A DNA stretch of 63,952 bases, filler included, from Perkinsus olseni (GCA_013115125.1; 5 parts of 5 records of this genome joined end to end with filler, not necessarily neighbours in it); one strand, 5' to 3'. Positions 3,801 to 55,609 are shown, counted from the whole stretch's first letter. Numbers and translations: made by a program. Notes: generated by a model from the letters alone, not told the origin.

Positions 3801-5494
3801 CTACAGTATGTACTCTTGTGGTAGAGCCGAGCATTTTCGAGTAACGATTCTCTCGGGGACGCCCCTCCTCCCACACCTGGCGAGATCGCCACAGAGCTCA
3901 ATGAGTTTCACGAAGCGGTGCGGAAGTTCCAGGATGCTACTGGAACCGTGGACATCACGACGAAGGGCCCTCAAAGCAAGGAGAGCAGCGGATTGTAATG
4001 TATGATTCATCCATCCATCAATGTCACCGAGTTCTGCTGAGTGGGCCATCGTGTCGTCAAAGCGTTGCTCTGGAGTGGAGCTCCGTATATTTATTATGAA
4101 CTTATAATTATGATGATATGATGGCTATAAGTATAGTACAGAGATTAATAGTATAATTATGGGTATATAGATCTATGGAATAAACCTAATATATCATCAT
4201 ATTATGTCTTACTAATATCTATCATATCATATAGCCTATAATTATTATGACCATAACCATAAGTCGTCGAATGTTAGGTATGAACATGGGCACTCGGACA
4301 GAATATCGGCACAGTTGCTACAGACGGGTGAGGAGGCGAAACCATCACCGCTTCCTGAGGTCGACGAGCTGCCGAAAAACGTTGCGTAACGCTGGGGCCT
4401 TGCCTCGTCTGCCTTCCGTCGGCTCCGTCATTTTCGCCGTCGTTCCGCTATGGGTTTTTGTTGCTGTGTTTTTCGCGAGTTTTCCGGTTCAGTATGGCCG
4501 GGTATGTGAATTCTCCTTTGAGTTCTACCTACAGGTTTGCCTCAACTAGTGGGGACTTGTCCGAGGATGATGTGAAGAACGTGAAGCAGTACAAGACAGA
4601 CGGAGATGGTTCGAATAGTCAATTCATCAAATACTCGTCGAGGCCTTGGTCGATTTATAAGCAGGCTTCCAGCATTGTTGTTATAACCTGGACTGTGGGG
4701 TAAGTTAGTCTGGCCCAGCATGGCCGGAGTCCGCGAAGGTATCGCCATGCCTTGTCAGGCTCATCTGGGGTATATTGGATGTCTTAGAAGTGCCAACGGG
4801 CACTGGTCTGACCCTTTCCAGTACTCCGACGGCCAGTCAACGGCGTCTCGAATCTGGCGCCGAAATCTTCGCTCCGCTCGCGCCGTTCTTTACTCCGGTG
4901 GGACTGACCACTAAGGATGGGAGAGGCGAGACGCTTATTGCTACTGATGGTATCAGTATGTGGCCTGAGATCCCGGACAGTGAGTGTTTATCCCCCTTGA
5001 GTGGAGGTCAGGACGCTACGGACTTGACCTGGCTTGGAGACTCACTGCTCATCGCCTTCGGCAGTAATGATCTGCTCAACTGTACCTCGGGAGATCGGGT
5101 CGAATTTCCGATGGAAATAGTGAAACTTGAGTCGATCGGCTCCCGGCTGGTGGTGGCTACTACGGGCAATAGAATCTACATGTTGGACTCAAGCACAGAT
5201 GGGAGGTGGAGGAAACGAGCTCGAGTGGGTGAGTATGAGAAAAATTCTCTGTCTGTCACGGGTATCGCCCGACTGCGAGATTCGACAATCGTAGTGATGC
5301 TTGCGAACGGCACACTTCATCATTGGGATATCGAGAGAGGGTCCTTGATTGTGAGTGAGCTACCCCGTACTGAAGGCGTGCAGCGTTACACGGGACTCGC
5401 GGCGCTGGACGGGCAGATGGTGGTGGTGGCAGCTGTGATGGACGACCATACGGCTCAGCTTTTCGTCGTATCTGGGCCCGCCTCCAGCAAATGA
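834..5494 (+). CDS. Multi-exon polytopic membrane protein, uncharacterised; possible C-terminal beta-rich domain
   Basis: ATG at 834. Exon 834-974 splices (GT975..AG1049) in frame to VGLYREDLRDLFGLTITKMDNYLVVNTLMLGFCIALFYDG. Later exons carry several hydrophobic helices (e.g. WAAWAFVVVMATTALLHF). The last ORF 4775-5494 is assumed to belong to the same gene; internal exons not all resolved. Confidence 0.65.
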
Positions 5495-7664
5495 GATAAT
5501 TTTGTACTTGTGATGGCTGCTCATGCGCGCCGTCATGATGATCCATTGCGTATATTAAAGCCATTGTGATTAACTTACTGCATACTTCGCATGTTTGCTG
5601 ATATTTTTTTTTCAAACACTTCATAAGCCAGTTTAATCGTATACCGTCGCTGGTGTTGTTACATATCGATGTGGTTTAGTGACACTGCTGGGCCTCACCG
5701 AGAATTCAGGATGAGGATAGCTCTCACTTTCGTCTGACGAAAGGTAGTCGTCGCTGGCGCAGGAATTTTTTAGCTGAGCGATTTGGTGGCTAGAATACTA
5801 TTGGCGAGCTCCTCTTGCTGGTATATCGTGAAACGTATATGCATATGAAACGGTCAGAGGTCAACCTCTCTTAATTCATCCCAAGGATGTTGTGGACTGA
5901 TTTTCGCTACACCGTTGCTTTGTACAGCCAGCACAGTGCAACGATTATAGCTGATCGACTTGTTACGATGGGCGGCAGCCTACAAAACTACCCGGGCACT
6001 AACGCAGCTATTCGATACTGTCTCGTAACGACAGAAGATGATTTGGGAGGCGATTGATGCATCGGAGCACGTCTTCTTCTAATCGGTTTCCTTGACTGTG
6101 TATAGTGGCTATACTATAGTTGCACAACAATGCAGCAGGGCCGAAGTCGGAGGAGAACCTCTGCTGATTTCGGTTCTGCTGCAGTACCTACAGGTAAGTT
6201 GCAAAGGACTAGGCTCTCCCGGATGAGCGGCGAAGCTCACGTGATTGCCCGGCGATTGCCAAGGCCTACCCGGGAGCCTATTTCGCGAGGATTCCTAACC
6301 AGCTAGGATGGGGATGCTATTTCACATTAAGGGTTTTTGGAACCACTACAACCTATCCTCCGGCACTGCAATGCCAGACGGACATTGGCAGCTCGTTGCT
6401 GGAGAGTGATGTTCCGAAAACCGCAGGGTGGTCATAACATCTGATGCAAATGTAAAGCAAATGTAAATCTAAATGTAGAGGCGCGGGTGGTGACGAAAAA
6501 ACGACCGTAAGACACGACATGACGACCAGTGAACTGCGATGACTGTGAGTCGAGAGCACCGAAGAGAAGCGTGCTGGGCACGAAAGGGTTCCTCAGTTGA
6601 GATAGAAGCTTTAACGGGAACCTGACTGGAGATTGAAATGAGCTTACTTAAAATGAGGTCCTACTTGAAATGAGGCCTGGAAATGAGTTAGGCCTTGAAA
6701 TGGAGCTTGGGTACTTAGCGTCACTTGGTGATGGGAATGTGGGATGAGAGTCGTCTCACGAGACTCCGTGAGGCGCCGCCGTAACGGCTCGACCACCAGC
6801 TGTTGCGTGCCTGTACTACAGGCCCTGTATTGACTCCCAAATTGGGGGTCCCAACCGCGGAAAGCCTCTTAACGTATGCGTGCAACTATGCAGAGAGCAT
6901 AGCTAATGGCGAGACAGCGCAACTACAATCAATGGTGTAAGGATAGCCATTCTCAACCTCTCAGACCTAATAGTAAGTAAGCTAGCTAGGCTCACACTGG
7001 TGCACTCAGAGTGACTTAGCCTAAAGAGACACAAGGCCTAACTACAGCCTATAACACAGCCTCGTCGGGGACTGTCCCAGAGCAGAGAACGATGAGGGAG
7101 CTTCGACTGATGGTACTTGATGATATTAATTGGACTGTAGGTCTGATGGTTAAGGCGAGGTCTTCTGTCGCGACCTTTCCTGGATTTATGCCATTTGCAC
7201 TTTCTTTTACCCATCGTTCCCATCTTGCTACCCGAGGGTCTGCTCTTGTGTTTACTACTAGAGGAGCTCCCTTGAGCAGCATGGTGGCGACGGGGACAGT
7301 CATGGTGAGTCACCATTGGTGACCGTCACCAGGTGACGGAGTCACCGACGCCTGTAACACTCATGATGGCGCCAAGTCTGGTACTCGAGACGTGCATTCT
7401 TCCCGCCTCCACTGCTCTTCTACGTCTCGTGAAGAACGTCTCAATCACCCTTGAGATCTGCTCTCTGAATCGTGCCCTCCGGAATCCAACTCGGCTGCTG
7501 AATCGAAGAATGCTCGAGAGGGGACACATAAGACTGTCACTACCAAGGGACATTTTTATTCGGCTCCACGCCCACATGGCCAGTGTAGGAAATGAAGTGA
7601 ATCAACGAAACTGTGGAGAGGATATCGTTTATCAGACTTGTTACTATGACTTATTCCGTCCTAG

Positions 7665-13621: not shown

Positions 13622-13721
13622 NNNNNNNNNNNNNNNNNNNNNNNNNNNNNNNNNNNNNNNNNNNNTTAATTAATTAANNNNNNNNNNNNNNNNNNNNNNN
13701 NNNNNNNNNNNNNNNNNNNNN
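13622..13721. other. Assembly gap with artificial TTAATTAATTAA linker (also 27288-27387, 40945-41044, 54463-54562; plain N gap 27505-27603)
   Basis: N-runs with a central linker that gives stops in all six frames. Confidence 0.95.
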
Positions 13722-26570: not shown

Positions 26571-27458
26571 GATGCCGTATCCTCCACACCAAACCACCAA
26601 GTTAGAAGGCTATAAGGTTCAGCAGGCCTACGGCGTACGATGGGAAGCGTGGCAGCTAGAATAACCGGCAGGCAACAGGGCGCAGTCATCATCCGAGTAT
26701 ACTCCACCGATGATGATCATCGGTGGAGTATACTCGGCTGTGTTACGAGCAACACTATGGTGGTGCTGCTACGCGATCGGCCCAAGAACCAGAGGTGATA
26801 TGCCGAGGATATGAAGGGGACCTGTTCCCTGGCCAATCGGTTTGCGTTGTCGAGCCTCGCGGGCGGAGTTATAGGAACCCTTGATGATAGTACGAAACTG
26901 ATGAGTCATCAGTGATGACCACAGCTGATCCTTTGTGCCGCATTCGGGTCTCCTTCTCTCTCTGCACCGGGTGCAGTGGAGTGTTGTGCGACGGACAAAT
27001 TGCACCTCCGAAGGCATGCGTATGTGAGACACATCATGTGTCTCAACCGGCCGTGCAACTCACAAGTGGATGGTGGAGTTGACCTGCAGCGCCGACGGAC
27101 TCAATCATCCATTCACCATCTGCAGTCACAAACTGTCATCCTCCTTCGTTGATTCAACTCACTTGCAGGGTAGCGGGGGGGGGCGCGGGGGGGGGGGGGG
27201 GCCCCCCCCCGCGCGGGCCTAGGGCGAGCGCGGGTGGCCACTGACACCGGGAACTATCTTACAAAATTGCAGCTGAAGCGAGCGATTNNNNNNNNNNNNN
27301 NNNNNNNNNNNNNNNNNNNNNNNNNNNNNNNTTAATTAATTAANNNNNNNNNNNNNNNNNNNNNNNNNNNNNNNNNNNNNNNNNNNNTTGCACGCACAAG
27401 GATCAACTCCCGGGCGCACCGCTATTTTACGCTACGCGCAACATGTTGCCCTACACAT

Positions 27459-27775
27459 GACGACCGGCTTAGTCATACTAGCACCGATGTATCTTGTTTC
27501 AAAGNNNNNNNNNNNNNNNNNNNNNNNNNNNNNNNNNNNNNNNNNNNNNNNNNNNNNNNNNNNNNNNNNNNNNNNNNNNNNNNNNNNNNNNNNNNNNNNN
27601 NNNGGACAGTGTGACGACCGGCTTAGTCATACTAGCACCGATGTATCTTGTTTCAAAGGACAGTGTGACGACCGGCTTAGTCATACTAGCACCGATGTAT
27701 CTTGTTTCAAAGGACAGTGTGACGACCGGCTCAGTCATACTAGCACCGATGTATCTTGTTTCAAAGGACAGTGTG
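27459..27775. repeat. 54-bp tandem repeat spanning a gap
   Basis: Unit GGACAGTGTGACGACCGGCTTAGTCATACTAGCACCGATGTATCTTGTTTCAAA; at least 4 near-identical head-to-tail copies with no spacers. Confidence 0.9.
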
Positions 27776-40000: not shown

Positions 40001-41044
40001 GCCGTAAAGAACCATATCAATAGTAGACCGAAAGCACTGATGCGCTGGCGAAGACGCAGGACTCAAGTCTCAACCAAACCCAGGTGTTAAATTGAGAGCG
40101 CTAGTCACCAAAAGAAAATTCGCCCAAGATCATCCACAGCCCACATGACAACATAGAATAGCAACCGTATCAACATCCATTCGCCGAGGAACTGATGCGC
40201 TGGTGAAACCAAAAAACATATGACCCAAGTCTCAAGCAAACCAGGTTTTGCGTTGAGAGCGCTAGCCAAACAAAATGCTTCACCCAAGATCATCCACTGA
40301 GCTGAAACCTCTGAGTGTGGGGAGGGGGAGTGGGGCGTGCGAGCACCGGAACCTGAGGCAAGCGCAGTTCCGTGAGAGAGCTCTCGGAACCGCCGAAACC
40401 CAAGCGATCACGACTTCGTGCCGGCTTGGATTACCTGAGGCGGGTAGAGGTTCACTCGGAACTTTCGCGCTGATCCAGGACTTTGACCAACTTCAGCCAA
40501 CGCAGTATCATCTGAATATTGAAACCTCTGAGGAAGTTTCTCTCTGGAAGATCAACTCTTTATCTCCATTCGCGCAGAGCATTAGGGTTGCTTTAGTCAA
40601 GTACCTTTCTCGAGATATTTGTGACGTATAGAGGCTTCCCTTTCGTCTCTGCGACGCTCCATTCCGGCTACGAGGTCGACCACACGTGGAAACGGCCCAG
40701 TGCTGCCGACTCTAATCGAGACAGGGCTGGTATCGAATGAGAATGCTGCGAAAACAGCTCGTGGATCATCTTGAAGCCATCCTCATATTGTACAGCTTAC
40801 ACGCCCCGGAATTCTTTGATAGCAGCTTCCTTCGTATACCTCGGAACATCTCGGCCTCCTGCTCCTCTCGGCGCATCTCTAAATCGTCAATCCTCCGCTT
40901 GATCCTGCCCACATCTGTAGCAATTGGTGGCATCATCCTCACAGNNNNNNNNNNNNNNNNNNNNNNNNNNNNNNNNNNNNNNNNNNNNTTAATTAATTAA
41001 NNNNNNNNNNNNNNNNNNNNNNNNNNNNNNNNNNNNNNNNNNNN

Positions 41045-41115
<71 letters not shown>
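41045..41115. repeat. (AGT)n microsatellite at contig start
   Basis: About 23 perfect AGT units directly after the gap. Confidence 0.95.
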
Positions 41116-41240
41116 CACGCGTCGCTAGATGGCGTTGTGTGCTCTGTCCCCGGGGCCTTCGTGTGTACTGAAGATGATGGTAGAGCAGCGCGGGCACAGC
41201 GTAACTGATGAACCTAACTCGTACCGACTGAGGATGGCAG

Positions 41241-41620
41241 GTACGCTACTCTGCCCAACTTGATGAAGGCTAAGAAGAAGCCGATCGAAGTTATACCGGC
41301 CGAGAGCCTAGGCGTTGACCTTCAGTCTCATCTTCAAGTAAGGCTCAGTCCGTACAGTACGCCAGGACTTAGGGATGGACACAAGCAGCCATCCAGTGTG
41401 GGCCGCTATCTGTCGGCTGGACGCCGCTCAGCATTGATAGAAACCAGTGGTGCTTGTCTTGGATCGATCTTTAGTCGAACTGACATGCTCATCCTGGGTC
41501 GTCAGCATGATGGTTCAGGTGACCTCGGTGGAGGAGCCCCCAGCCCGGAAGGCGGGTGTGATCTTGAGCGATGTTGATGAACTCGTCGACAAGCTTAAGA
41601 ACGAGGCTAAGGTCCTCTAG
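41241..41620 (+). CDS. ETFB: Electron transfer flavoprotein beta subunit, last two exons (5' part lost in gap)
   Basis: [32 protein letters not shown] (41241-41337), GT..AG intron, then [33 protein letters not shown] (41519-41620). Confidence 0.9.
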
Positions 41621-41845
41621 GATAATTTCGTGGCGCGCGGTCATGCCTCCCAGAAGGTTACAGCCGTATGATCAACAGTTTTTATTACTATGCAGAGTTA
41701 CTGAGTGTGGCTGGCGTTTTCGAAGTGGTCCTCACAGACGTTGTCGTGTTCAATGCGTACGCGTGCACGTCACGCTTGACATTCAACGATCGGTGTCTTC
41801 CATGCCTTTAAGTTGAGATTCTTCTCGTGTTGTTCTCTATTCCTC

Positions 41846-43360
41846 ATGATGACTAATTTTTACGAAGAACCGGTTGCTGGTGGTGCGAGTGAGGGGTTAT
41901 GGAAGGCTAATCAAGACCTCGCCCTTATGAGTCTGCATCATCCCTTCGTCCAAGGCCTTGGTGATGGCACCCTCGACCCCGCTGCCTTCACTACTTATAT
42001 GGCTCAGGATACGCTATACTTGAACGGTTACCTCCGGGCTCTCTCCTACTGCATCGCTAAGAGCGACGTGACAGCGACGGGGAAGGAGCTGCTGGCGTTA
42101 CTGGATGGCGTTGGAGATGAGCTGAAGGCTTGCCATCAGCACTACATTGACAACCCTGATGCCACTGGTCCGGAGGGTGCTTGCCGTAAATATGTCAACT
42201 TCTTGCTCACCATCGGTCAGGCTGATCTCGGACCATCAGTCATGGTAGCCGCTGTTATACCCTGTGCTAGGTTGTACGCTTGGATCGGCAGGGAGCTGAC
42301 GGCTGGTCGGGAGGTCCCAGAGGACCATCCCTTCCGCAGATGGCTGGTCAGCTACGCCGATAAGCCCATCAACGACTCGGCTAAGACCCTCGAAGCCCTC
42401 CTCGATAAGCAGATTGAGCCGGGCGAGTATGAGGAGGTCGCGAAGGCCTATAGACGTGCTATGGAGCTCGAGTACGACTTCTTCGATTCCTTTGGAGGCT
42501 GCTTGGGTCGGTCTGCTGATGCAGCCATCACGGTCCCTACAGTGTTGGTTGTTAGCGGTAGCGACTCTGGTGGAGGAGCAGGCCATCAGGCTGACTTGAA
42601 GGCCTTGGAGGCCCTGGGAGTCTACTCTACCTCAGCGTTGACATCGATAACTGCGCAGAACACTAAAGGCGTTCATCGAGTGCAAGTGGTTGATGATGAG
42701 ATTTTTGCGGGCCAGATCGATTCGGTTATCAGCGACTTCAAGGTCTCTGTTGTGAAGCTTGGATTGGTGCCTTGCGCTAGCCAGCTAGAGATGATAGCTA
42801 AGAAGGTGGGACACTTGCCGATGGTGGTGGACCCTGTCTTGGTGGCAACCAGCGGAGACGATCTTGTCGCTCAGAAGAACGCCGAGGATGTTTTGGCGAC
42901 CTACAAGGAACGCATTTTCCCGCGCGCCACAATAATCACTCCGAATCTCCCGGAAGCGCAGCGCCTGCTCGGTAGGAAGGAGATCACAGGTGTCTACGAG
43001 GCCAGGGCTGCCGCACAGGCGTTGGCTCAGTACGGGTCCAAGTTTGTCCTGGTGAAGGGTGGCCATGATGAGTCCGACCCCGACACCTGCCGCGATGTCC
43101 TCTACGATCGGGAGAAGGACCACTTCTACGAGTTTACCAATAAGCGTATCGCCACGACCAACACCCATGGTACGGGCTGCACTCTTGCCAGCGCCATCTC
43201 TGGCTTCATGGCTCGCGGTTACTCTGTCCCACAGGCTGTCGAGAATGCCATCGGCTACCTTCATCAAGTGATAGTCCGCTCCTGTGGAGTCCCGTTAGGA
43301 CAGGGCACCAACAGGCCCCTAGTCCACTCATCCAACAGCATTTGGGCCAACTACTGTTAA
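41846..43360 (+). CDS. tenA-thiD: TenA (thiaminase II/aminopyrimidine aminohydrolase)-ThiD (HMP/HMP-P kinase) fusion, intronless
   Basis: TenA motifs HPFVQGLGDGTL, YMAQDTLYL, catalytic-Cys motif VIPCARLY, ELEYDFF. ThiD motifs GSDSGGGAGHQADLK, DPVLVATSG, TPNLPEA, KGGH, THGTGCTLASA. Confidence 0.95.
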   Translation: MMTNFYEEPVAGGASEGLWKANQDLALMSLHHPFVQGLGDGTLDPAAFTTYMAQDTLYLNGYLRALSYCIAKSDVTATGKELLALLDGVGDELKACHQHYIDNPDATGPEGACRKYVNFLLTIGQADLGPSVMVAAVIPCARLYAWIGRELTAGREVPEDHPFRRWLVSYADKPINDSAKTLEALLDKQIEPGEYEEVAKAYRRAMELEYDFFDSFGGCLGRSADAAITVPTVLVVSGSDSGGGAGHQADLKALEALGVYSTSALTSITAQNTKGVHRVQVVDDEIFAGQIDSVISDFKVSVVKLGLVPCASQLEMIAKKVGHLPMVVDPVLVATSGDDLVAQKNAEDVLATYKERIFPRATIITPNLPEAQRLLGRKEITGVYEARAAAQALAQYGSKFVLVKGGHDESDPDTCRDVLYDREKDHFYEFTNKRIATTNTHGTGCTLASAISGFMARGYSVPQAVENAIGYLHQVIVRSCGVPLGQGTNRPLVHSSNSIWANYC

Positions 43361-43458
43361 TATCTCCCTTAGGCTTGGTGATTTATTGTTTTCCCTCGGC
43401 AGTAGTGTAGTGTTGATAGCATTGTCCCGAATCTCGTACGAGTTAGCTTTTTATTGGT

Positions 43459-44943
43459 ATGTCATCGGAGCTCTATAAAGTGTACGCTTGTACGAACGGC
43501 AAGTTCAGCCTGGAACTGCCCCGCATGGTGGCGTCTGCCATTGCCGGCGGTGCCACTTGTGTTCAGCTCAGATTGAAGGATGTCAGTACTGGTGACTACA
43601 TCAAGTTGGCCAAGGAGACCAAGAAGGCCATGCCAAGCCACGTCCCTCTGATCATCGATGATCGTGTTGATGTGTGTCTGGCTAGCGGTGCTGATGGCGT
43701 TCATGTTGGTGACTCCGACATGCCTGTTAAGGACGCTCGGTCTATCATTGGCCCTGATAAGATCCTCGGAGTATCGACCTATGGGCGCAGAGAAGACGCT
43801 ATCGCGGCCATCCAGGACGGCGCTGATTACATTGCCACTGGTGCGGTATACCCAACAGTCACTAAGCCTGGTGCGGTTGCTAAGGGGTTGGACCAGATAG
43901 ACGTCCTTAAGGAGGCTTTGAAGGCTACAGGGAAGACTCTGCCAATCGTGGCTATCGGTGGCATATCTCCCGTTACGGCCATCGACTGCGTCCAGAGAGG
44001 CGCTGATGGTGTATGTGCTGTGAGCCAAATCTTCGACTCTTGGGAGTCACCGGAGTCGCGCGCCAGGAAATTCCTCAAGTCCTACTGTTCTGGCATGGAG
44101 ATCAGGTCGAAGTTGAGTACACACGGTCGCTACGACGGTGGAAGGGTGGCGGGCCTCTGGGCGAAGCTGGCTCAAGCCGGCCCCCTCACCCAATGTATCA
44201 CCAACTACGTCTCGATGAACTTCATGGCCAATGCTTTATTGGCCGCTGGTGCCTCTCCGGCCATGGCCCACGCTAAGGAAGAGGCCCCGCAGTTCCTGGA
44301 GATGGCCGGTGCTCTCAACGTTAACATCGGCACTTTGTCTAGCAATTGGGTCGATTCCATGCGGGCGTGCGCTAAGAAGGCGACGGAGACCGGCAAGCCG
44401 TGGGTTCTGGACCCGGTAGCCGCTGGAGCGACGACATTCCGGACAGGTGTTGCGACAGAGCTGCTCAGCTACAAGCCTACCATTCTCAGAGGAAATGGCG
44501 GTGAGATCCTCGCCTTGGCTGGGGAGACTGGCGCTGTGAAGGGCGTTGATTCGACCGTGGGCAGCGATGCTGCTTTGGAAGCTGCTAAGCACATCGCAAG
44601 GAAGTTTGGTAGCGTCGTGTGCATCTCCGGTGCGACTGACTTCGTCACGGATGGCAACAGAGTGATTGAGGTTTGCCATGATGTGCCGATGTTGCCGTCA
44701 ATCACGGCCACTGGCTGCACACTCAGCGCCCTCATGACCTCCTTTTGCGTTGTCGCTGAGGATCCGATCGATGCTGCTGTAGCGGCCTGCGCTGGATGGT
44801 CTTTGGCTGCCCAGGAAGCCTCGGTGAGAGCGGAGGGCCCGGGAAGTCTGGCCGTGGAGTTGCTCAACACCCTTCCCAAGCTGAGAGATCCGGCTTGGCC
44901 AGCATGGAGCAGACTTGTTATTTTTGAACATAATCGTCAATAG
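43459..44943 (+). CDS. thiE-thiM: ThiE (thiamine-phosphate synthase)-ThiM (hydroxyethylthiazole kinase) fusion, THI6-like, intronless
   Basis: ThiE motifs GATCVQLRLK, IIDDRVD, GVHVGDSD, YPTVTK, VAIGGI. ThiM motifs ITNYVSMNFMANALLAAGASPAM, NIGTL, VLDPVAAGAT, RGNGGEI, ITATGC. Confidence 0.95.
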   Translation: MSSELYKVYACTNGKFSLELPRMVASAIAGGATCVQLRLKDVSTGDYIKLAKETKKAMPSHVPLIIDDRVDVCLASGADGVHVGDSDMPVKDARSIIGPDKILGVSTYGRREDAIAAIQDGADYIATGAVYPTVTKPGAVAKGLDQIDVLKEALKATGKTLPIVAIGGISPVTAIDCVQRGADGVCAVSQIFDSWESPESRARKFLKSYCSGMEIRSKLSTHGRYDGGRVAGLWAKLAQAGPLTQCITNYVSMNFMANALLAAGASPAMAHAKEEAPQFLEMAGALNVNIGTLSSNWVDSMRACAKKATETGKPWVLDPVAAGATTFRTGVATELLSYKPTILRGNGGEILALAGETGAVKGVDSTVGSDAALEAAKHIARKFGSVVCISGATDFVTDGNRVIEVCHDVPMLPSITATGCTLSALMTSFCVVAEDPIDAAVAACAGWSLAAQEASVRAEGPGSLAVELLNTLPKLRDPAWPAWSRLVIFEHNRQ

Positions 44944-45616
44944 GCGAACGGCGTTCATTTCCTTTCCGACTCTGATTGGTCTTGTGTGTTTGAATTCGAG
45001 TGGGTGATGATTTTTGTAGAAGTCGCAGAGGTGTCTGTATGATAGCGTGTAAAGGACTGGTCTCCCTTAACTCCTCCACCCTCGCTCTGCCGATAATACC
45101 GCGTCTACGGTCGGGCATCAGGGGCTCAGAGTCGACTCACGTGGAATCAATATCTCCTCTAGGGTGGAAGTCTACTCATAATGTTGACAGGATGGGAGGA
45201 ATGACTCCTGCGTGACGCGAGTAGCGGAGATGATGGTATTCATCACTACCGTGCACGCATGCACAGCGTCGCTAGCAGCCGCGGACAGCATCAACAGATG
45301 CATCAAAGGTCGGTCAGAGTGATGAGAGAAATCTTAGTCTGCTCATGTGTCGTGTTCACTCTCCGTTGAACGGAGTCCGTTCATCAGGGCGGCTGCATCC
45401 CTTCCGTTTGGGGTTGGAATACTGAACAATATTATGGCTCGCCGTTTCCGTGTCACAGCCTCTGCGGACTCTGCTGGGAAGACTGAGGGCGACACACTAC
45501 GGGGGACTTTCTCGTCGATATTCCATCCATCCTGTCCAACACCATGGGCGCCTCTCCTAATCGGGGTTGATCCTCTTTAAGATTTCCACATATATCTCAG
45601 CTTTGCCGTCTAGCTG

Positions 45617-47373
45617 ATGCTCCTCAAATCGTGCTTCCTCGTGGCCGTTCTCGGTACTGTGTTGCCGGGCCTCACCGCCGAGATCGTCGAATTCCGCTTG
45701 GACGGGCTGAGTCACTCCAGCGATGGAATCAAGAAGGCTGTCACTGAAGAAGGTATGTATTTCGGCAAGGAGAGTATCTTGGCCACACGTTGACGACCAC
45801 GCAGATGTGCGGTATCTTCGAATGCCTTCAACTTTTCAGGGGCCTTCCTTATCGCTGGGCTCTCCAACGAGTTCACGGAGGCCTACAGAGGCATCGCGAC
45901 CGGATTGCCGGAATGCTCAGAAGCTGATGCTGACGGCGTTGACACTTTAGACGATGGCACCGTCCGTATCACTTTCGCCCAACGTACGAGGGTTCGCTGG
46001 CATCTTCCCGCTCAGATTGGAGCAGGCCATGAGGATTCGTTGCGAGATTAAGTGTACAGGTTCTCTAGATGGAGAGACCTCGGGGTTCATGGCCCGAGGG
46101 AGTTGCCCGATGAATCTCGCCGAGAATATGAAGGAGATGAGTGCCGATCTTGACTACATTGGAAGGGAAGTTGCGGTTGAGCTGACTGATGTAAGTCTTA
46201 ATCTCGGTGAGCCCCATTTGGGTGAATAAGATGATTTCAACAGCGCTCGTAGTGTAACGGTATCATACAAGCTTCCCATGCTTGTGTCCCGGGTTCGACT
46301 CCCGGCGGGCGCAGTTTATTACGATCAGGCCCTTTCACCCAGCGTCCATCATCCGGACCTGCCTTCCATCATAGACATCCTCGAGAAAGGCCGTGAATAT
46401 CATCTCGATCACGTCCACATCTACCAAAACCGTAACAATAGTGCGGTTGGAGCCCACAAGGTAGGAGGGTAGCTTCTCGTCGATCGTCTCTCTACCGCTA
46501 TTCGTTACCACCGACGGCATCGTTACGTATCTCTGGTTGCTTCCAGGACTCCTCAACACCCACCCTCACTTGGCACACCGACCAAGGGGCATTCTTGCTC
46601 CTTGTACTCCCACCAGGAGATCAGAGCTTCCACTATAAGGATAGTCAAGGCGAGGAGGTAACAGGACCCCAGCCTCGCGCTCTTCCCGAGGTTTCACTGC
46701 CAGACTACACTCAGCATCCCTAACAACGGTGAAGTCAGAGTCCTCGTGGTGATGGGTAACGCTCTGCGCAGCAACTTCTTCGGTGAGGTGGCGAACGGCG
46801 CTCGATCGTGCCGGGATCCCCTCTGTTGGCTTCGGAATCTCAGAAACTACTCCGCCCATCCGCCCACTCCCCCACTCGGTTTATCTGAAGAGCCTTTCGC
46901 CTGGCGACCCTCGCGTCGTCATCGGCAGAATGTTCCTGCCCCCCGCGGACATCAGAGATTCCCAAACGGGTCTCACGTACGAGGCCTGGAGTAAGCAAGC
47001 CATGATCCCCAATCCCGTCTTCGACACCGAAGAGGTCATTGCTGAGAAGAGGCGGCTACGTAAGATGCTTATAGGGTGACAATACAGGCTAGCATCATTT
47101 TCTTGATCAGAGACTAGTTGCAACTCGAGCAGTATTCAATGCTGGATGAGATGTATGGAGAACACTTGCTCGGCTGGGCAGACGGCAGTATGCTGGAATA
47201 AAGCTACCCAAACTGCATGCCCTATCGACAAAAAGATGCGTCCGGAGTGCAGCGTCGGGTGTCTAGGCTCTTCAGGGACCACTACAAAGGCGCCGAGGTC
47301 CGCGGCTACCAGTAATGTCGTCACCAAGGCGGTGGCCGCTATGGTAGCCCTGCTCGGGTTGGTCAACTTTTAG
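45617..47373 (+). CDS. Signal-peptide 2OG-Fe(II) oxygenase-like protein with Cys-rich, hydrophobic C-terminus; multi-exon
   Basis: MLLKSCFLVAVLGTVLPGLTA signal; HLDHVHIY; TWHTDQGAFLLL (HxD); PLPHSV...RVVIGRMFLPP (distal His, then Arg); ends AAMVALLGLVNF*. Confidence 0.65.
46243..46313 (+). tRNA. tRNA-Gly(CCC), located inside an intron
   Basis: Acceptor stem GCGCTCG/CGGGCGC plus discriminator A; anticodon arm CAAGC-TTCCCAT-GCTTG; T arm CCGGG-TTCGACT-CCCGG; 71 nt. Confidence 0.93.
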
Positions 47374-47731
47374 TGACCGATCTTAGTTCGAACATGTGGT
47401 TTAGTCATTTCTGAGCCGTACAATTACGATGGAGTGCCGGCTGGAGTAGGTCGCCTCTCCGGTAGATATTGTCGCCGACACTCATGTCAAGTCCTCGGCT
47501 GTCAATCGACTTTTTCTCCACACGCTCTGGCTGTTCGGGTTCACATCACACGCATGGTACGGCTGGCGCACGGCGTCGAGGCATCAATGATTCATCTCTT
47601 GGGAAATCACGGCGGGGCGAGAGTTCACGCAACGCGGAGGCTTGTCTATAGTCGGCGTCATCTCATCACTACTCAACGTGGTGGTGAAGGATCCATAAAT
47701 TAGTTCCTCTCTTGCTGCAGCTCAGTTTCCA

Positions 47732-47848
47732 ATGCCCCCCCTTCGCCCGCTGCTGGTAGTGTCGATCATCCTATCATCACAGCATGTGATGAACAGAATC
47801 CAATCTCAGCTCCGGTGGAGCATCTATTCCTCTGCCCTGAGGCGTTCA
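47732..47848 (+). pseudogene. Truncated 5' fragment of the LicD-family gene (duplicate of ~51120-51270)
   Basis: Aligns by eye with the 51120 gene start (GAACAGAATCCxATCTCAGCTCCGG...TATTCCTCTGCCCT) with indels, then diverges. Confidence 0.75.
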
Positions 47849-48359
47849 GGCAAATAAGAACATGCTAGCTTAAAGCCGGTTCGCCACACGAACAGTCCTT
47901 TGCTTCTTCCCGACATGAAAGGCCCTGGCACCGGTTTTTTGAGGCTCTTCAGTGGTTGTTCAATGAGATAGAGAGGATCCAATTTCAGTCGAGTGCGACA
48001 TCTTTCCGTTCACGATGAGCTTCTCCAATTGCCGTCGACTGGACAACGTAACTCGTGCTCGCTGAAAGGTTACGAGGGGCGGGCTCTTCGAAGTGACCAT
48101 CTGGTTGTTCCCAGGATCCCATCGAAAAGACCCGATGCACCCACTCACCACTTTTCCGATTATTTACCACAGAACACCTGTGACAGAGCTTACTACTCAG
48201 ATAAATAGCTCAAGCTGAACGGAAGTATTCAAGAACTCGACGTCGTAGGAGCCGCTCGTCCTGGAGACAGCTTTCCCATACCCTTCAAAAAGTTTCGATA
48301 TAAAAATTCTTCGACCACGAATAAGCATTCATAGGAATACTCAACAACGGGCTAAGATA

Positions 48360-49167
48360 TTAGTCACTCGCAATCATCCCGCAGACCAGACGAGCACCAG
48401 AGTTACCCGTAGCTCTCGAACCGACCGACCGACCGAGTGAGGGATGATGTCGGACCAAAGAGCAGGATCAGACTGTCGTAGAAGGAGCCCTTCGCCCTGC
48501 CTGATGCATCGGCTTTGATGTTGCCCATGTCACCAACGTGCCTGACTGTCATATTCAAACGGTCACCGTGGAACTTGTAGAAAGGGTTGTAGTGTCCCCC
48601 GGTGGAGGTGCAACCGTTGGAGAAGTCGGAGAACTCATGAACATGCACACCATGCTGGGCGAACGGCTCCAAGTTGTATACATCGTAGCTTATCTTGGTT
48701 TTTGCGTGGCTCTCCTGCTCGAAGTAAGATGTACCGCGGACCTGACTTCCGCTGCCCTGAGGCTCGAGCTTGGCCGAAGCTTTGATAGGGAATCTTGGGC
48801 CTCTTCTGTCGACTGAGAGGAGTACGGATTCGAACACCCCTTGCAGTACCCCTTACATGGTAGGACGTCATCACAACGTACCGGGTAGTATTCGTGGCAG
48901 TTCTTCTGGAAGGCCACCGAGCATGGAGTCGCGTTCGCGCTGTCGGCCGGCTTAATAAAATACCTGAAGCGCGATGGGATTCGTAGTGGCCATCCTTGAG
49001 ATGTGCCCTCACAGATCTTGGCATACGGGAGGCGGCGATTGATAGTCTTTGCAATAAGAGCCCTTGAAAGTGCATCCGGGGATAAGGCTGCAGAGATCGT
49101 CACATGCGTTCCCAGGTAGCTGGGCTGCGACGAAGGGGAGAAAGCCGATAGTCACGAGAAGCATCAT
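48360..49167 (-). pseudogene. Disabled duplicate of the secreted Cu/Zn SOD gene
   Basis: Near-identical to 52951-53799, but the VLHADQDDLGLGGNPG-coding segment is deleted at ~48423. This removes a Cu-ligand His and shifts the frame. Confidence 0.8.
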
Positions 49168-51119
49168 GATACAGGAATGCCTCTAGGTATACACTGAAGG
49201 CAGTTGGGATAAGAAGTTCTCACAACCATCTCCGGTGCTTGCTAAATACCAGTATCTAGTATCACTCAGCGCCTTGCAACGGCGTGCTAGATACGCTGCA
49301 GATAGTGCTATGAATCACATCACCGCTTCAACCCTCTCGAGTTTCACTCTCCTGTTCCTTTGGCTCCACCTTATATATTCACGCTGAGGCATAGCGCAGT
49401 ACGGGGAGCAACTCCTGAACTACAGTGACAACTTACTAACAATCAGAAACCCGTATCATTCTGAGCCTAGCGCTCGCGTGCATGAGCGTACGCTCTACAC
49501 GGTGTCCCACCATAAAGAACTGCACTGTAATGACAACATAGTGAGGGCTATACGTTATGTAGCAGCTCCCACCAGGTTCAGTGGTACTTAGCTGTTAGAC
49601 TATCACTCGCTGCAATCACCTTGACTGCTACTGCGCATCATTAGTCTCAGATAACCGTCTGACCTAATCCTGCGCCTTGCACTCGCGTGTATGAGTGTGC
49701 GTTCTAGATTACGCTGTAGATCATCTTGTCCCCTTTACTCCTCCCGAGGCAAGCGATGAACCTTCTTTTGAGCCCTGTCCCTAATGGTTAAGATATGAAG
49801 AACGTGGGGTAGTGGCTACCATATGCCGTGGAAATCTCGGAATTGAGCGCTCCTCGGGGTGAGCAGCAAATCTCGCCACCCCGAGCGTTTCATCGGATTC
49901 AGCTACGTCAGCAACTCCCGAGCGACACCAGCGCAACCTTCCTTCGATGTTACATCTCAATGGGAGCTAATTTCGCGATGGTTTCCGTACAGTGATGTCC
50001 AGTGTTGTTTGACCCAGCACTAAGAGATGCCCATAGAATGTGTACACCTCGAATAAAGTTACACATAGCTGCGGAGCGTTAACCACGGCCATGTGCTCGT
50101 ACTCCTCATTGTGCTGCGTCGCTGTTCAAATTGCGTCGCTGATCCAAGCGTGGCCCCAAGGGGCTTCTCCTCACAATGCCACCCAAAGTGTTCGGCTTAT
50201 CGATAGGAAGCTGCGTCTGAATTACAGCGTTGGGTTTACTTTTAGTGACTCATCTTAGTTCGAACATGTGGTTTAGTCATTATGATGCGCTTTTCTGAGC
50301 CGTACAATTACGATGGAGTACCGGCTGGAGTAGATCACCTCTCCGGTAGATATTGTCGCCGACACTCATGGCAACTCCTCCTCTGTCAATCGACTTTTTC
50401 TCCACACGCTCTGGTTGTTTGGGTTCGCCTCACACGCAGGGCCAGGCTGGCGCATGGCGTCGAGGCATCAAACGTCGACTATTACGAATCTCTCGCACCC
50501 TGTCAAAACCTATGCGCCATGTAAGAGGTCGACTAATTGCCGCAAGCGAGTGGGCACTGTGAGACCGCCGCTAGGCATTCAGGGAACGAACCTTCGAGGT
50601 TCGTTTGCCGAATCCCGGCGAGATTCAACCTTGAGAATCAACCCCAGAACATTGGAAAGGCTATTAAGAGCTCCTAGAGAACCTCAACCTCATCGAATGC
50701 GGAGGACACATCGCCGAGGACCAAGGTCAATCGACGGGCACCGTTCCGCAAGCTTTCTGCCTTCACTGTGCGGAAGATGCGCGGATGCATTCTCAGGGGA
50801 CAACCGACACAACCAGCAACTAGCACACCTCTGGTGCGATTTAGTCTGTGTTTTGAGTTCATCGTCTGGTGTGTAAGTCCGCTCAGCAACCTCCCTAACA
50901 CGTCGTATCGTATGAAGGAAAACAGAATGGTGGCCCAAACTGAGACGGGAGGTGCCTTACTGTCTCCTAAAACTGCAACTAGCTCACTACTAGCCAAAAT
51001 GCAAAACAGGGTGAGAGTCCACACAACGCGGAGGCTTGTCTTTTCTCGTCGGCGTTATACCAATGCTACTCTCTTAGAATCCATAAGTTAGTTCCTCCCT
51101 TGCTACTGTTCAATTCTCG

Positions 51120-52370
51120 ATGCTCCCCCTTCGTCTGCTGCTGCTGGTGTCGATCCTCCTTGTTCCCATAGAAGCATCATCATCGAGCCGCCATCCTTTT
51201 ATCAGAGTATATGACGAACAGAATCCTATCTCAGCTCCGGACGACCATTTATTCCTCTGCCCTCAGCCCTTCATAGATGAGCTGGACCTTTCTGATTGGC
51301 CTCGCCATGAAGTGACCATCAATGGTTCGGAGTGTATCAGCAGCGAGGAGCTCTTCGCCACCGAGGATAATGCCGTCTTCTTCGAGTGCCTTGCCACGAC
51401 TATCAACGCTACCACGCATGTCCTCAACTCTATCGGTATCGATGCGTCTATTTCTGATGGGACCTTGCTGGGTTGGTATCGTCATCATAAAGGCTTCATC
51501 CCATGGGACGTCGATGGGGATATGTCCATTATGAAGTCGGACTGTCGCAAATCTTTCGATAAGTATGCCTCGCCCGACCACAAGAACGTCGCTAGTCTGG
51601 TACAGGAGCTCATGCCTGACTACGAAGTGTACGGCATCAAACTTGGTGTTGGCTCTGGTCTGGAGGAAGATGAATGGGAGGGGTGCGAGAATCCTGAGTT
51701 CCGCGTGTATCATGTCCTCAATGGTACAGCGTGTCATGTCGACGTCTTCCAGCAGTTGCAGTCCACCGATCCAGAAGAGCCCTGCCAAGCATGCCCCGGT
51801 TATCTCGACGGTGAGGTGACCGTCTGCCGGTATCCAGAGGGGAAAGTCTGCGGCCTTCGCGATGATTTCCTCCCCATGACTTGGGACCATCTTTCTTGGG
51901 CCGATTGCAAGGTCCCTCGGCGGCCAAGTCACACGTTGGAGCCACAAGTCGGGGGTGCGCTCGAATTCAGGAATTTTCAGACTGTCCCTGGCAACTATAA
52001 GTACGGGGAGCAGATCCTGGTTGTGGGCCGACCAGTGGATGCCATGGGAAAAGACATCATCGCTCTTAGTCAAGACGATGAGGAGACGGTGGCTCCGGAT
52101 ATAACAGAGTCACCTGTCGTTCCAGTTACTCTGCCGAAGGTGAGATCTGATGATGACCGTGCGCAGTCCTACGATAAGACATTTATGAGCTACAGTGGAG
52201 CGCTCGAAGCTCACAGGTGGAGTGAAAGTTTTATATTGATTATCCTATTGGGTGCTCTTTGTTCCTTTTTCCTAATTTGGCTCTTCTGTAATTACCGGCA
52301 TCGTGCTGCTACCGGCAGTTCTAACCACCGAGCCGGTGATGACGTTGAAAATCGTGTTCTGATTGAGTAA
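51120..52370 (+). CDS. LicD/fukutin-family nucleotidyltransferase-fold protein, type I membrane topology, intronless
   Basis: DGTLLGWYRHHKGFIPWDVDGDMSI (LicD motif GTLLG..R....IPWDxDxD); HVDVF; N-terminal signal; C-terminal TM FILIILLGALCSFFLIWLF. Confidence 0.85.
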   Translation: MLPLRLLLLVSILLVPIEASSSSRHPFIRVYDEQNPISAPDDHLFLCPQPFIDELDLSDWPRHEVTINGSECISSEELFATEDNAVFFECLATTINATTHVLNSIGIDASISDGTLLGWYRHHKGFIPWDVDGDMSIMKSDCRKSFDKYASPDHKNVASLVQELMPDYEVYGIKLGVGSGLEEDEWEGCENPEFRVYHVLNGTACHVDVFQQLQSTDPEEPCQACPGYLDGEVTVCRYPEGKVCGLRDDFLPMTWDHLSWADCKVPRRPSHTLEPQVGGALEFRNFQTVPGNYKYGEQILVVGRPVDAMGKDIIALSQDDEETVAPDITESPVVPVTLPKVRSDDDRAQSYDKTFMSYSGALEAHRWSESFILIILLGALCSFFLIWLFCNYRHRAATGSSNHRAGDDVENRVLIE

Positions 52371-52950
52371 TGTCTGACGTGTACCAAGTCTAACAAAGAA
52401 TTTCTCCAGAAGTCCATCGTGGGTGTTGCGTCTTGGAGTGGCAGCTGTTTTTGGTCGACTTCGACGCTTTAACGTGAGAGCTTTGAGTACACTCAAGCAC
52501 TCCTGGGTGAACGCATCCACCTGAGCCTTTGTCGCTAGTCGTGGACAGGAGGGGCATATTCTAATTGTCAATTGCAATCGGAGGGACGATCCGGCCGAAC
52601 AACTCGACCGACCGGAGGATGGCGAGATATCCGAATCAAGAAGGAGCGTATCAGTGGCTTTCCGTCTGGAAGTTCGCGTTGCAGGAACCTGACGGCTCTT
52701 TAGTTTTTTCGATCTCATCAGAGAGGCCTGACGCCCACATTCACTACTTCTTGCGACTATTTACCATGGAACACCGACAACTTCTGACAACAGGGAATTA
52801 CTCTGACAATGAGCTTGAACTTGACGAATGTATCCAACGACTCGCCATCATAGGAGCCCCTTAGGCTAGAGACGGCTCTAATGATGACAGTCTTATTACA
52901 TTCTACTTACAACCAACTTTTGGTTTAAAAATTCTTATAACGGTAGCTCG

Positions 52951-53799
52951 TTAGTCACTCGCAATCTTCCCGCAGACCAGACGAGCACCAGAGTTACCCG
53001 TAGCTCTCGAACCCGGGTTACCACCCAGGCCTAGATCATCCTGATCGGCGTGTAGCACGACCGACCGAGTGAGGGATGATGTCGGACCAAAGAGCAGGAT
53101 AAGACTGTCGTAGAAGGAGCCCCTCGCCCTGCCTGATGCATCGGCTTTGATGTTGCCCATGTCACCAACGTGCCTGACTGTCATATTCAAACGGTCACCG
53201 TGGAACTTGTAGAAAGGGTTGTAGTGTCCCCCGGTGGAGGTGCAACCGTTGGAGAAGTCGGAGAACTCGTGAACGTGCACACCATGCTGGACGAACGGCT
53301 CCAAGTTGTATACATCGTAGCTTATCTTGGTTTTCGCGTGGCTCTCCTGCTCGAAGTAAAATGTACCGCGGACCTGACTTCCGCTGCCCTGAGGCTCGAG
53401 CTTGGCCGAAGCTTTGATAGGGAATCTTGGGCCTCTTCTGTCGACTGAGAGGAGTACGGATTCGACCACCCCTTGGAGTACCCCTTACATGGTAGGACGT
53501 CATCACAACGTACCGGGTAGACTTCTGGGCAGTTCTTCTGGAAGGCCACCGAGCACGGAGTCGCGTTCGCGCTGTCGGCCGTCTTAATAAAATACCTGAA
53601 GCGCGACGGGATTCGTAGTGGCCATCCTTGAGATGTGCCCTCACAGATTTTGGCATACGGGAGGCGGCGAAAGATTGTCTTTGCAATAAGAGCCCTTGAA
53701 AGAGCATCCGGGGATAAGGCTGCAAAGATCGTCACATGCGTTCCCAGGTAGCTGGCCTGCGACGAAGGGGAGAAAGCCGATTCTTAAGAGAAGCGCCAT
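52951..53799 (-). CDS. Secreted Cu/Zn superoxide dismutase with N-terminal Cys-rich module, 3 exons
   Basis: Spliced: MALLLRIGFLPFVAG-QLPGNACDDLCSLIPGCSFKGSYCKDNLSPPPVCQNL|YFIK...PCSVAFQKNCPEVYPVRCDDVLP|FDRRGPRF. SOD motifs GVHVHEF, GCTSTGGHYNP, RHVGDMGN, VVLHAD, GARLVCG. Confidence 0.9.
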
Positions 53800-55609
53800 G
53801 GGAGAGGAAGGCACCTGTGCGTGAACTGTTCGTGATGCAGAAGCGAAGATCGCGGGTGTTGGCTTATGGAGGTCTAAGACATCTTACTCAGCCACAAGGC
53901 CTATAGTCGGCTGATTCACTATAACTCAGTACAGTGTGGCTCCTCTAAACGGGGCTCAAAGAAAGCTACAGTCGGACTCGAGGGGACTTCAACGATGATC
54001 AGGATCTGTGACGTAATCTAGAAGTTCTAGACCACCACGCTGTTGAGCAATGAGTGCTTGATGTGACCCTTATAGTTAACGCAAGCCATCGTACATAGTC
54101 GTAGGTCTCAGTAGTTCTTCACAGTAAGAGTTCCAAAGACGTCTGAATCATATTGAGCTAACATTGAGACTGTTCTTGTTCTCTGCTAACAACTCAAGTC
54201 TTCGTAAGATGGTGTAAGGTAGGCTAGGCTAGTGATATCGGTGACGACTGATGACGGGTTCACAGCAGAGTGAACAAGAAAGGGATCAACAAAGCATCTT
54301 GTGAGCTCGGCGAGGCCTCGCTCGTTAGCTATGACACGGCGGAGCGAAGTAAAGCACGTTTCACAACTTTCCCACTTCCATCTCGGAGATGGGGCAAATT
54401 CATTTTCTCAAGGTTTTTGGGAAATTCTCAAGGTTGTAATCTCGCTCGCCCGGCGTGCTGGTNNNNNNNNNNNNNNNNNNNNNNNNNNNNNNNNNNNNNN
54501 NNNNNNTTAATTAATTAANNNNNNNNNNNNNNNNNNNNNNNNNNNNNNNNNNNNNNNNNNNNACTAATTACAGTGTGATACAGCCTGTGCATTCATGTTT
54601 GGCAGAGTGAAGTGATGAACCTCCCAGTTTAGTTTTTCCAGTGTCTCCTTAAATGCCTGACGAATAGAGATGCCGCATACGGGCTCAAATCTCGGCTGCC
54701 TTTCTCGTCATCGGCATACCCCCGCAGTATCCCCAATCCGCGCCATTTAAGCGATAGGTAAGCGACATTAAGCGTGTTGCGATAGGGTAAGCGATAGGCG
54801 CCAATATCAACTGCGCCGCGCAGTTGATATTATATCAATGATATATGCTCGGATCTCCCATGACCGAACGATGAATACTTGCAGACTGGAGAAAGTATGA
54901 GACTGTGAGGAGTAGGACTCAATTGTGAAATTCCGAATCGTGTCATATTTGACTGTATCTTCCTGCGAGGCCTGGAATCTGACAAGCGGAGTCAGAATGA
55001 AATTTGTTATGGCCACCAACAACCTAATCGTCCAGCATGACCAACTCCACACGCAGTTGCAGAAGATTTTGTTGAAGAAAGCCTTCCATGTAGCTCGGAT
55101 GGAGTGCGGCTCTCGAGGCTGACACTAGACGTGCTGATACTGAAAATGCCGTTTAGAAATCACGGCCAGGTCGAGGCAGCGGACTATGTACGATGGCGAA
55201 TCGCCAAACGTCTCTGAGAAAGAGTGTCACCAACTCCTCAGGGGAGCGGTCTACGCCTCAGACTCTGAGCCCGATCCAACGACGCCTCGAGTATGTATTA
55301 TGTGATGCCATACAAAACGGATCCGTGAAGAAGACGGATTTCACTGGCAATTTACAGAAAGAAATAAACGGTGCGTGCAGTTTCGCTACTGATAACGCGT
55401 TCTGATGCACAACGGCCATGACTCGGCTCGAGTGAAACGCCTGAGCCCAAGGCACAGTATCAAGTGCTGGCCCCAGGGGAGAACACACCATGAAAAGTGG
55501 CAGAAGACATGAAAATGACACGGCAATAGACGAATGTCGCCCAATGGCCATGTAGCAGGCTCCAAGCAGGACCGAATGGGCCCTATAGCCTCGCTCAGTA
55601 GGAAGGACT

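Follow-up and report, generated by a model that had tools for sequence, protein, structure and literature searches.

Neighbouring TenA-ThiD and ThiE-ThiM fusion genes of Perkinsus olseni: predicted thiamine salvage domains and spliced-leader transcripts

The stretch of DNA analysed here, which we call the window, comprises 63,952 nucleotides from Perkinsus olseni (GCA_013115125.1) and contains two neighbouring genes between positions 41846 and 44943 whose products resemble fused enzymes of thiamine (vitamin B1) salvage. The first gene (ORF1; ORF, open reading frame) encodes a TenA and a ThiD domain, the second (ORF2) a ThiE and a ThiM domain. From either gene a separate mRNA is made, without introns and trans-spliced to the spliced leader (SL). 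We suggest that, very probably, these are two ordinary nuclear genes of the P. olseni type with the salvage domains expected from their family matches, that the pair has been inherited in the genus and that it is not a recent bacterial import. In an original prediction, made from the sequence alone, the locus had been described as a complete salvage pathway of a eukaryote, possibly acquired horizontally and possibly co-transcribed. What the analysis returns is a real, tidy, and fairly ordinary gene pair.

Domains and transcripts of the two genes

The open frame of ORF1 extends from 41813 to 43360 with a TTG start; its first ATG lies at 41846 and its stop codon at 43358–43360. On the same strand and 98 bp behind this stop codon, ORF2 starts with the ATG at 43459. 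According to Pfam, ORF1 comprises TENA_THI-4 (residues 23–215, E = 1.6e-21; ~41912–42490) followed by Phos_pyr_kin (residues 240–483, E = 1.8e-79; ~42563–43294), and ORF2 comprises TMP-TENI (residues 9–191, E = 1.1e-50; ~43483–44031) followed by HK (residues 236–475, E = 1.8e-77; ~44164–44883). The ORF scan, Pfam, and the RNA contigs of run X9 (see below) confirm the original prediction in its description of four domains in this order, of intronless genes, and of the 98-bp gap.

The ThiD, ThiE, and ThiM domains pass the curated NCBIfam cut-offs: ThiD with TIGR00097 (HMP-P_kinase; score 251.1 against 204.95), ThiE with TIGR00693 (166.3 against 145.1), and ThiM (PF02110) with both TIGR00694 (263.6 against 256.4) and NF006830 (295.9 against 180). 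The Pfam matches cover model positions 1–239 of 246 for ThiD (PF08543) and 2–180 of 180 for ThiE (PF02581). The TenA domain passes at the level of the Pfam family (PF03070, 77.5 against 22) and matches solved TenA chains (3ibx, E = 2e-13). In the alignment AAVIPCARLY of ORF1 stands opposite AALLPCYWLY (1to9) and AAVLSCGWSY (3ibx), the Cys of the 'PC' motif being matched; QDTLYL is aligned to QDSYYL and QDYLYL, and ELEYDFF to EYEYLFW (3ibx). The aligned Cys, together with the Asp and the Glu, we take to be the catalytic residues of Bacillus subtilis TenA. The best solved matches of the ThiD and ThiM parts are 7r8y (E = 3.6e-63) and 3hpd (E = 9.5e-57), the ThiE part matches the solved ThiE 1g4t (E = 2.5e-31), and ORF2 is colinear with the solved THI6 3nl2 (residues 22–481 against 29–530, E = 6.8e-53). 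In the ESM Atlas the TenA part reaches 0.89, which is a lead only, and the nearest clusters of ORF2 are fungal THI6 (0.96).

With a partial P. olseni protein ORF1 shares 98% identity, and with a P. marinus protein bearing the annotation 'phosphomethylpyrimidine kinase, putative' 83%; for ORF2 the identity to the P. marinus protein '4-methyl-5-beta-hydroxyethylthiazole kinase, putative' amounts to 90%. Thus, both genes are already present in public annotation. In the open literature we found no description of a Perkinsus thiamine pathway.

Sequencing runs were compared over positions 41130–45630 and comprised the assembled RNA contigs of run X9 (recorded as RNA) and run X8 (RNA by guess), the DNA run X1, and the raw reads of RNA run X24. 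From X24, ~12.9 million records (~4 in 100 of the run) held 0 reads in this region, and a sample of this size is uninformative either way. The contigs of X9 and X8 are transcripts, as the intron of the upstream gene ETFB (41338–41518, GT..AG) has been removed in both. Two X9 contigs (records 11 and 12) span 41804–43394 and 43445–44962 with 0 differences from the genome and without joints, which shows that neither thiamine gene has an intron. At their 5′ ends the transcripts carry loose letters, CTTGGCTCAAG for ORF1 and CTTGGCTCA for ORF2, which correspond to the 3′-terminal sequence of PmaSL1; in ORF2 the motif is completed by the genomic AG at 43445–43446. PmaSL1 is the Perkinsus SL and reads ACCGTAGCCATCTTGGCTCAAG in the available text of PMC3101222 and PMC9399869. 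As the 3′ end of the SL is found on each mRNA, each gene gives a separate SL-trans-spliced mRNA. The ORF1 junction (41803/41804) is seen in contigs of two RNA runs, and the ORF2 site has a normal AG. Neither of the 5′ untranslated regions (UTRs; 42 nt in ORF1 and 12 nt in ORF2) contains an upstream ATG.

In one public P. olseni model, P0254 (FOZ63_014351, 656 aa), ThiE-ThiM is fused to the C-terminal portion of ThiD. As the two genes have separate SL-capped mRNAs, this model is probably a mis-join.

Origin and linkage of the pair

ORF1 shares the combination of ThiD and TenA in one polypeptide with yeast THI20/THI21 (3rm5) and with the actinobacterial ThiD-TenA fusions, but its order is the reverse of the THI20 type. 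The order ThiD-TenA is found in Mucoromycota and Actinobacteria, and the order TenA-ThiD in Perkinsus, in oomycetes, and in a few unlabelled proteins; by its predicted domains, the TenA-ThiD order is common to Perkinsus and oomycetes. The oomycete proteins (Saprolegnia, Achlya, Aphanomyces, Pythium, and Lagenidium; 560–668 aa) have a linker which is 130–190 aa longer than that of ORF1, and their ThiD parts are 43–46% identical to ORF1 over the best segment. No oomycete ThiE-ThiM is present among the best 120 matches of ORF2, and Phytophthora is reported to be without THI6 and THI20 in the available part of PMC10499793. In ORF2 the ThiE domain precedes the ThiM domain as in the colinear fungal THI6 (3nl2, 3nm1; thiamine-phosphate synthase / hydroxyethylthiazole kinase). 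This order is found in Perkinsus, in fungi, and in a set of unlabelled proteins which carry N-terminal extensions that the Perkinsus protein lacks; bacterial-type fusions have the order ThiM-ThiE.

For the trees, partial Perkinsus duplicates, rows covering <60–80% of the domain, and one synthetic construct were left out, and the rows of the reduced sets were selected manually (for ThiD 58 of 120, for ThiM 52 of 114, and for free-standing TenA 29 of the 120 matches listed). In the FastTree tree of ThiD (120 rows) Perkinsus falls into a 44-row set (support 98) with named plants, green algae, Mucoromycota, and oomycetes. A quick tree under a mixture model (58 rows) places Perkinsus with plants, green algae, oomycetes, and unlabelled rows (support 93 and 81), and named bacteria and Mucoromycota on the opposite side (88). 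In the ThiM tree Perkinsus joins the unlabelled ThiE-ThiM rows (94) and this set joins plants and green algae (83), while fungal THI6 stands among the bacterial ThiM-ThiE fusions (97); FastTree concurs. The ThiE tree (FastTree only, 38 fused rows) gives Perkinsus the same partners as the ThiM tree. Thus, in spite of the shared domain order, the ThiM and ThiE domains of Perkinsus group elsewhere than those of fungal THI6, with the unlabelled ThiE-ThiM proteins and, in the case of ThiM, also with plant and green-algal kinases. When all 12 ThiE-ThiM rows were forced into one clade, which had been chosen after the tree was seen, this clade was rejected for ThiM (log-likelihood, lnL, −38; p = 0.0029 in the approximately unbiased test, p-AU). 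The ThiE-ThiM fusion therefore looks convergent with fungal THI6, and we infer from these trees that Perkinsus ThiE-ThiM belongs to a protist lineage separate from the fungal protein. Among fused TenA proteins only, a branch with a support of 99 splits TenA-ThiD from ThiD-TenA, and a single clade of Perkinsus and oomycete TenA is not rejected (lnL +3.7 relative to the free tree, p-AU 0.61).

Bacterial tenA-thiM-thiD-thiE operons resemble the Perkinsus pair in that the four activities lie side by side on one strand (PMC2766623, available part), and many metagenome loci, which read thiM-thiE-thiD(-tenA), resemble it in their clustering. Perkinsus differs from these operons by having two fused genes, separate SL-capped mRNAs, another domain order, and no thiamine pyrophosphate (TPP) riboswitch that could be found in the window. 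The original prediction had considered a horizontal acquisition, and we regard it as improbable that a bacterial thiamine operon was captured by such a transfer and its genes were fused later. It is true that bacterial-type loci often cluster these functions (of 51 ThiM-ThiE loci in the scan described below, 28 have ThiD and 13 have TenA), and that the top TenA identities outside Perkinsus belong to free-standing bacterial TenA. There is also a eukaryotic precedent, as the available text of PMC4901422 lists thiD, thiE, thiM, and tenA of the parasitic cyst nematode Globodera rostochiensis as horizontally acquired genes with consecutive numbers (GROS_g07352 to g07355). However, the Globodera genes are four separate genes ascribed to transfer, whereas Perkinsus has two fusions and trees without support for transfer. 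In none of the ThiD, ThiM, ThiE, and TenA trees is Perkinsus nested in a named bacterial clade, although the placement of TenA is unsettled, and a recent bacterial transfer is therefore unsupported. In addition, ThiM sides with plant and green-algal ThiM, the order ThiE-ThiM differs from ThiM-ThiE of the bacterial-type fusions, a common TenA clade with the oomycetes is compatible with the data, the homologues on the metagenome contig L002 (see below) probably contain introns, and the GC content of both genes (0.56–0.57) is near to that of their contig (0.53). TenA, or the whole cluster, may nevertheless have an old bacterial source.

Within the genus the two genes are repeatedly found together. 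In P. marinus EER05669 (TenA-ThiD) and EER05668 (ThiE-ThiM) are adjacent on a contig of 1,800,699 bp, and a second pair, EER11963 and EER11964, is adjacent on a contig of 786,501 bp. In P. olseni FOZ60_017206 and FOZ60_017207 are adjacent on a contig of 145,728 bp, and the window's own protein pair is found too on a contig of 42,823 bp. The linkage in sister species had been named beforehand as a point on which the original prediction could fail; the genes are in fact linked, twice in P. marinus. From this we infer that the pair was inherited within Perkinsus. P. olseni has two more TenA-ThiD paralogues (P0261 and P0263, 67–70% identical to ORF1) with consecutive tags (FOZ60_001676, FOZ60_001677) on one contig of 123,647 bp, and thus stand in tandem and apart from ThiE-ThiM; among the best 120 matches of ORF1 there is none from P. 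marinus that corresponds to them.

To look beyond the genus, metagenome contigs were scanned with an alignment of nine ThiE-ThiM proteins; 80 loci were kept, and their domains were assigned by tblastn with the four domains. The order ThiM-ThiE is found in 51 loci, with ThiD nearby in 28 and TenA nearby in 13 of them, and these 51 loci are bacterial-type operons. The others have ThiM only (14 loci), ThiE only (10 loci), or, by best segment, the order ThiE-ThiM (5 loci). Among the last five, L006 is too short to judge and L024 and L035 are ambiguous. L001 was ruled out as a second locus of ThiE-ThiM and ThiD, being a bacterial operon of 66% GC with separate genes: a cytosine/purine/thiamine-type permease, thiE, thiM, an AIRS-family (ThiL-type) gene, and thiD follow in a row (3–4181), and behind them come a serpin gene, which is on the other strand, and a CheB gene.

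L002 (45–54% GC) is a eukaryote-like contig and the single case in which both fusions are neighbours. A ThiE-ThiM gene (2242–3988), split by an intron-like gap, is followed on the same strand after ~0.5 kb by a TenA-ThiD ORF (4454–6415, 654 codons), so that the gene order is opposite to that in Perkinsus. The identity to Perkinsus is ~42% for ThiE-ThiM and 27–29% for TenA-ThiD. Within this locus (2041–6415) ThiE-ThiM has an N-terminal extension and TenA an acidic insertion, and the similarity to ThiD stops after approximately residue 551, probably at another intron. Pfam gave no match for the remaining two long ORFs of the contig (661 and 479 codons).

The adjacency could also be functionally meaningless and reflect tight gene packing inherited within the genus, an explanation which we consider possible though doubtful. 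In its favour, the functionally unrelated ETFB stands equally tight against ORF1, ordinary synteny predicts conservation between two congeners, and the one distant linked locus has another gene order. However, L002 carries both matching fusions close together on one strand, which is unlikely to happen by chance for two specific genes. As both fusions are adjacent in at least one distant eukaryote, their linkage is probably old or selected.

Genomic context and the question of a common precursor

As had been stated in the original prediction, the intron-containing gene ETFB lies upstream of ORF1 on the same contig; its stop codon (41618–41620) is separated from the ATG of ORF1 by 225 bp, and its intron is spliced in X9 and X8. 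The translation of 41513–41617, which covers the last ETFB exon, matches residues 220–248 of the ETFB chain 1efp_B (E = 2.5e-4). The ETFB mRNA contigs extend to 41693 (X9) or 41730 (X8).

The original prediction had also raised the possibility that the genes are co-transcribed and resolved by SL trans-splicing. Trans-splicing of each mRNA is borne out; the precursor is not, as among the contigs of the two RNA runs X9 and X8 none bridges 43395–43444. ETFB, TenA-ThiD, and ThiE-ThiM might form an operon-like unit with one precursor that is cut by 3′-end formation coupled to SL trans-splicing, and we put this forward only tentatively. All three genes are on the plus strand, the spacers are short, and the downstream gene has a site for trans-splicing. 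The distance from the upstream RNA end to the next SL site is 74–111 nt in front of ORF1 (41693/41730 to 41804) and ~50 nt in front of ORF2 (43391/43394 to 43445), and both downstream mRNAs bear the SL and have only short 5′ UTRs. On the other hand, neither spacer is bridged by a contig of the two RNA runs, though contigs cannot prove absence, and the contig depths are unequal, differing ~3-fold in X9 (31.8 against 10.9) and ~2.6–4-fold in X8 (~800 against 206–319). Moreover, according to the available text of PMC2868825 more than 14% of the expressed sequence tags of P. marinus bear a partial SL, so that the presence of the leader is by itself no sign of an operon. The term 'polycistronic' is absent from the available text of PMC3101222 and PMC2868825 and is merely generic in that of PMC9399869. 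It appears unlikely that the pair is a selected cluster which predates Perkinsus, as L002 might indicate, and which is expressed via a polycistronic precursor that comprises ETFB, TenA-ThiD, and ThiE-ThiM in this order and is resolved by SL trans-splicing.

The window consists of five pieces of ~13.5 kb each which are artificially joined by four 100-base linkers (Table 1), and it contains in addition a plain run of 99 N at 27505–27603. The public protein P0249, which equals ORF1 letter for letter, is recorded on a contig of 13,418 bp, in agreement with the piece 41045–54462. Arguments from a common contig are void across the linkers. This concerns the 2-oxoglutarate (2OG) gene which had been placed on the contig of the thiamine genes: neither the 28 + 64 ORFs of 41045–54462 nor 13 long ORFs elsewhere in the window gave a Pfam match to a 2OG domain, and with the window being a pseudomolecule of pieces joined by linkers the argument does not hold. 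As a lesson of method, reasoning of this kind on such pseudomolecules must respect the linkers. That the genes are eukaryotic is nevertheless upheld by the spliced ETFB, by the SL on both mRNAs, and by the pairs in both P. olseni and P. marinus. Two intronless, bacterial-looking ORFs in a window with artificial joins would fit a contamination by bacteria or a chimera of the assembly, but we consider the probability of this negligible. The joins fall outside 41045–54462, the spliced ETFB intron lies on the same contig as the two SL-bearing genes, the pair recurs in four other Perkinsus contigs, and an X1 DNA contig of 5,180 nt spans 41130–45630 with 0 differences, although it possibly represents source data and is then not independent.

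Several observations weigh against our view of two ordinary nuclear salvage genes inherited in the genus. Just before the 41804 junction the genome and the X1 DNA contig read AT instead of AG; strains may differ in the outron, or the acceptor may be non-canonical. The 3′ ends of the RNAs are those of assembled contigs, in which true ends are not defined and rare forms are lost. With respect to function, the TenA domain scores 73.6 against the cut-off of 130 of TIGR04306 (salvage_TenA, thiaminase II) and thus stays below it, and the roles of the enzymes are predicted from their families. With respect to descent, free-standing bacterial TenA proteins (Cyanobium, Reyranella, Enhydrobacter, and Acidimicrobiales) are 39–44% identical to Perkinsus TenA and oomycete TenA only 31–36%, and when 29 free-standing rows are added to the TenA tree, Perkinsus (support 99), oomycetes (88), and bacteria (89) form one three-way group (83) with an unsettled internal order. 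The trees contain no named dinoflagellate, chromerid, or apicomplexan rows and the nearest ThiE-ThiM relatives are unlabelled, so that a vertical descent in the alveolates would be conjecture. The post hoc choice of the ThiE-ThiM clade belongs here as well, as does the fact that the distant linkage is known from one contig only and in the opposite gene order.

The left end of the contig is an (AGT)n microsatellite (41045–41117), which probably caused the assembly break inside ETFB. Downstream of the gene pair we found a tRNA-Gly(CCC) gene (46243–46313, plus strand) and two minus-strand ORFs for Cu/Zn superoxide dismutase (48406–48852, E = 6.8e-27; 52954–53484, E = 1.6e-38; Pfam), between which a plus-strand ORF of 427 codons (51087–52367) has a short LicD match (E = 2.2e-9). 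An X8 contig of 1,677 nt begins at 45284, preceded by adapter alone and lacking an SL, and the ORFs there have no Pfam match.

Table 1. Features of the thiamine gene locus and of the window that holds it
Feature	Position	Strand	Evidence and remarks
Artificial linkers (44 N, TTAATTAATTAA, 44 N)	13622–13721, 27288–27387, 40945–41044, 54463–54562		Sequence
Linker	40945–41044		Left boundary of the real contig holding the thiamine genes
Real contig holding both thiamine genes	41045–54462		13,418 bp, bounded by linkers
ETFB exon	41239–41337	+	RNA contig records 3 and 10; upstream exon joins at 41239 (loose letters before)
ETFB intron, 181 nt, GT..AG	41338–41518	+	Joint 41337>41519 in contigs of RNA runs X9 and X8
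Last ETFB coding exon including stop codon (41618–41620)	41519–41620	+	RNA contigs, structure match
ORF1 5′ UTR, 42 nt	41804–41845	+	SL letters CTTGGCTCAAG abut 41804 in X9 and X8
ORF1, TenA-ThiD gene, 504 aa	41846–43360	+	ORF scan, Pfam, NCBIfam, solved structures
ORF1 3′ UTR, ~31–34 nt	43361–43394	+	Contig ends 43391 (X8) and 43394 (X9); approximate
Spacer without RNA contig	43395–43444	+	~50 nt; bridged in 0 of 2 RNA runs
AG acceptor (43445–43446), then 12-nt ORF2 5′ UTR	43445–43458	+	SL letters CTTGGCTCA abut 43445 (X8)
ORF2, ThiE-ThiM gene, 494 aa	43459–44943	+	ORF scan, Pfam, NCBIfam, solved structures
ORF2 3′ UTR, ~19 nt	44944–44962	+	X9 contig end 44962; approximate

Predicted pathway and its meaning for Perkinsus

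The family assignments suggest how the four domains would act together. The TenA domain would convert aminopyrimidine breakdown products to hydroxymethylpyrimidine (HMP), which the ThiD domain would phosphorylate to HMP phosphate (HMP-P) and further to HMP pyrophosphate (HMP-PP). The ThiM domain would phosphorylate hydroxyethylthiazole, and the ThiE domain would join the product with HMP-PP to thiamine monophosphate. In the available part of PMC2766623 the four families are described in these roles, which lead from hydroxyethylthiazole and the breakdown products of the pyrimidine to thiamine monophosphate; beyond this point eukaryotes such as yeast and Plasmodium depend on a dephosphorylation and on thiamine pyrophosphokinase (TPK). 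Neither TPK nor a phosphatase for the step to TPP is present at this locus. The pathway, which had been called complete, thus reaches as far as thiamine monophosphate and not beyond.

A TPP riboswitch was found neither in the whole window at the gathering score nor in 41045–54462 at E values up to 10, where the tRNA gene gave the only matches of the search. A TPP riboswitch has been reported in P. marinus (McRose et al. 2014, PMC4260697, available part), and it may bear on the regulation of this pathway.

Provided that the enzymes have the activities of their families, Perkinsus can make thiamine monophosphate from pyrimidine and thiazole fragments and would not need intact thiamine. Such a salvage, if true, bears on how this parasite, which is a serious one of oysters and clams, is nourished in culture and inside its host. 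To our knowledge animals are without these enzymes, so that the pathway is a reasonable, though in kind not a new, idea for a drug target. The locus is also a small and clean test case for two questions, namely whether selection keeps eukaryotic vitamin-salvage genes together and whether densely packed same-strand genes of Perkinsus are co-transcribed and resolved by the SL. The co-transcription of such tightly packed, SL-capped genes lends itself best to a test, and a polycistronic precursor, if true, would provide direct evidence that Perkinsozoa use operon-like transcription.

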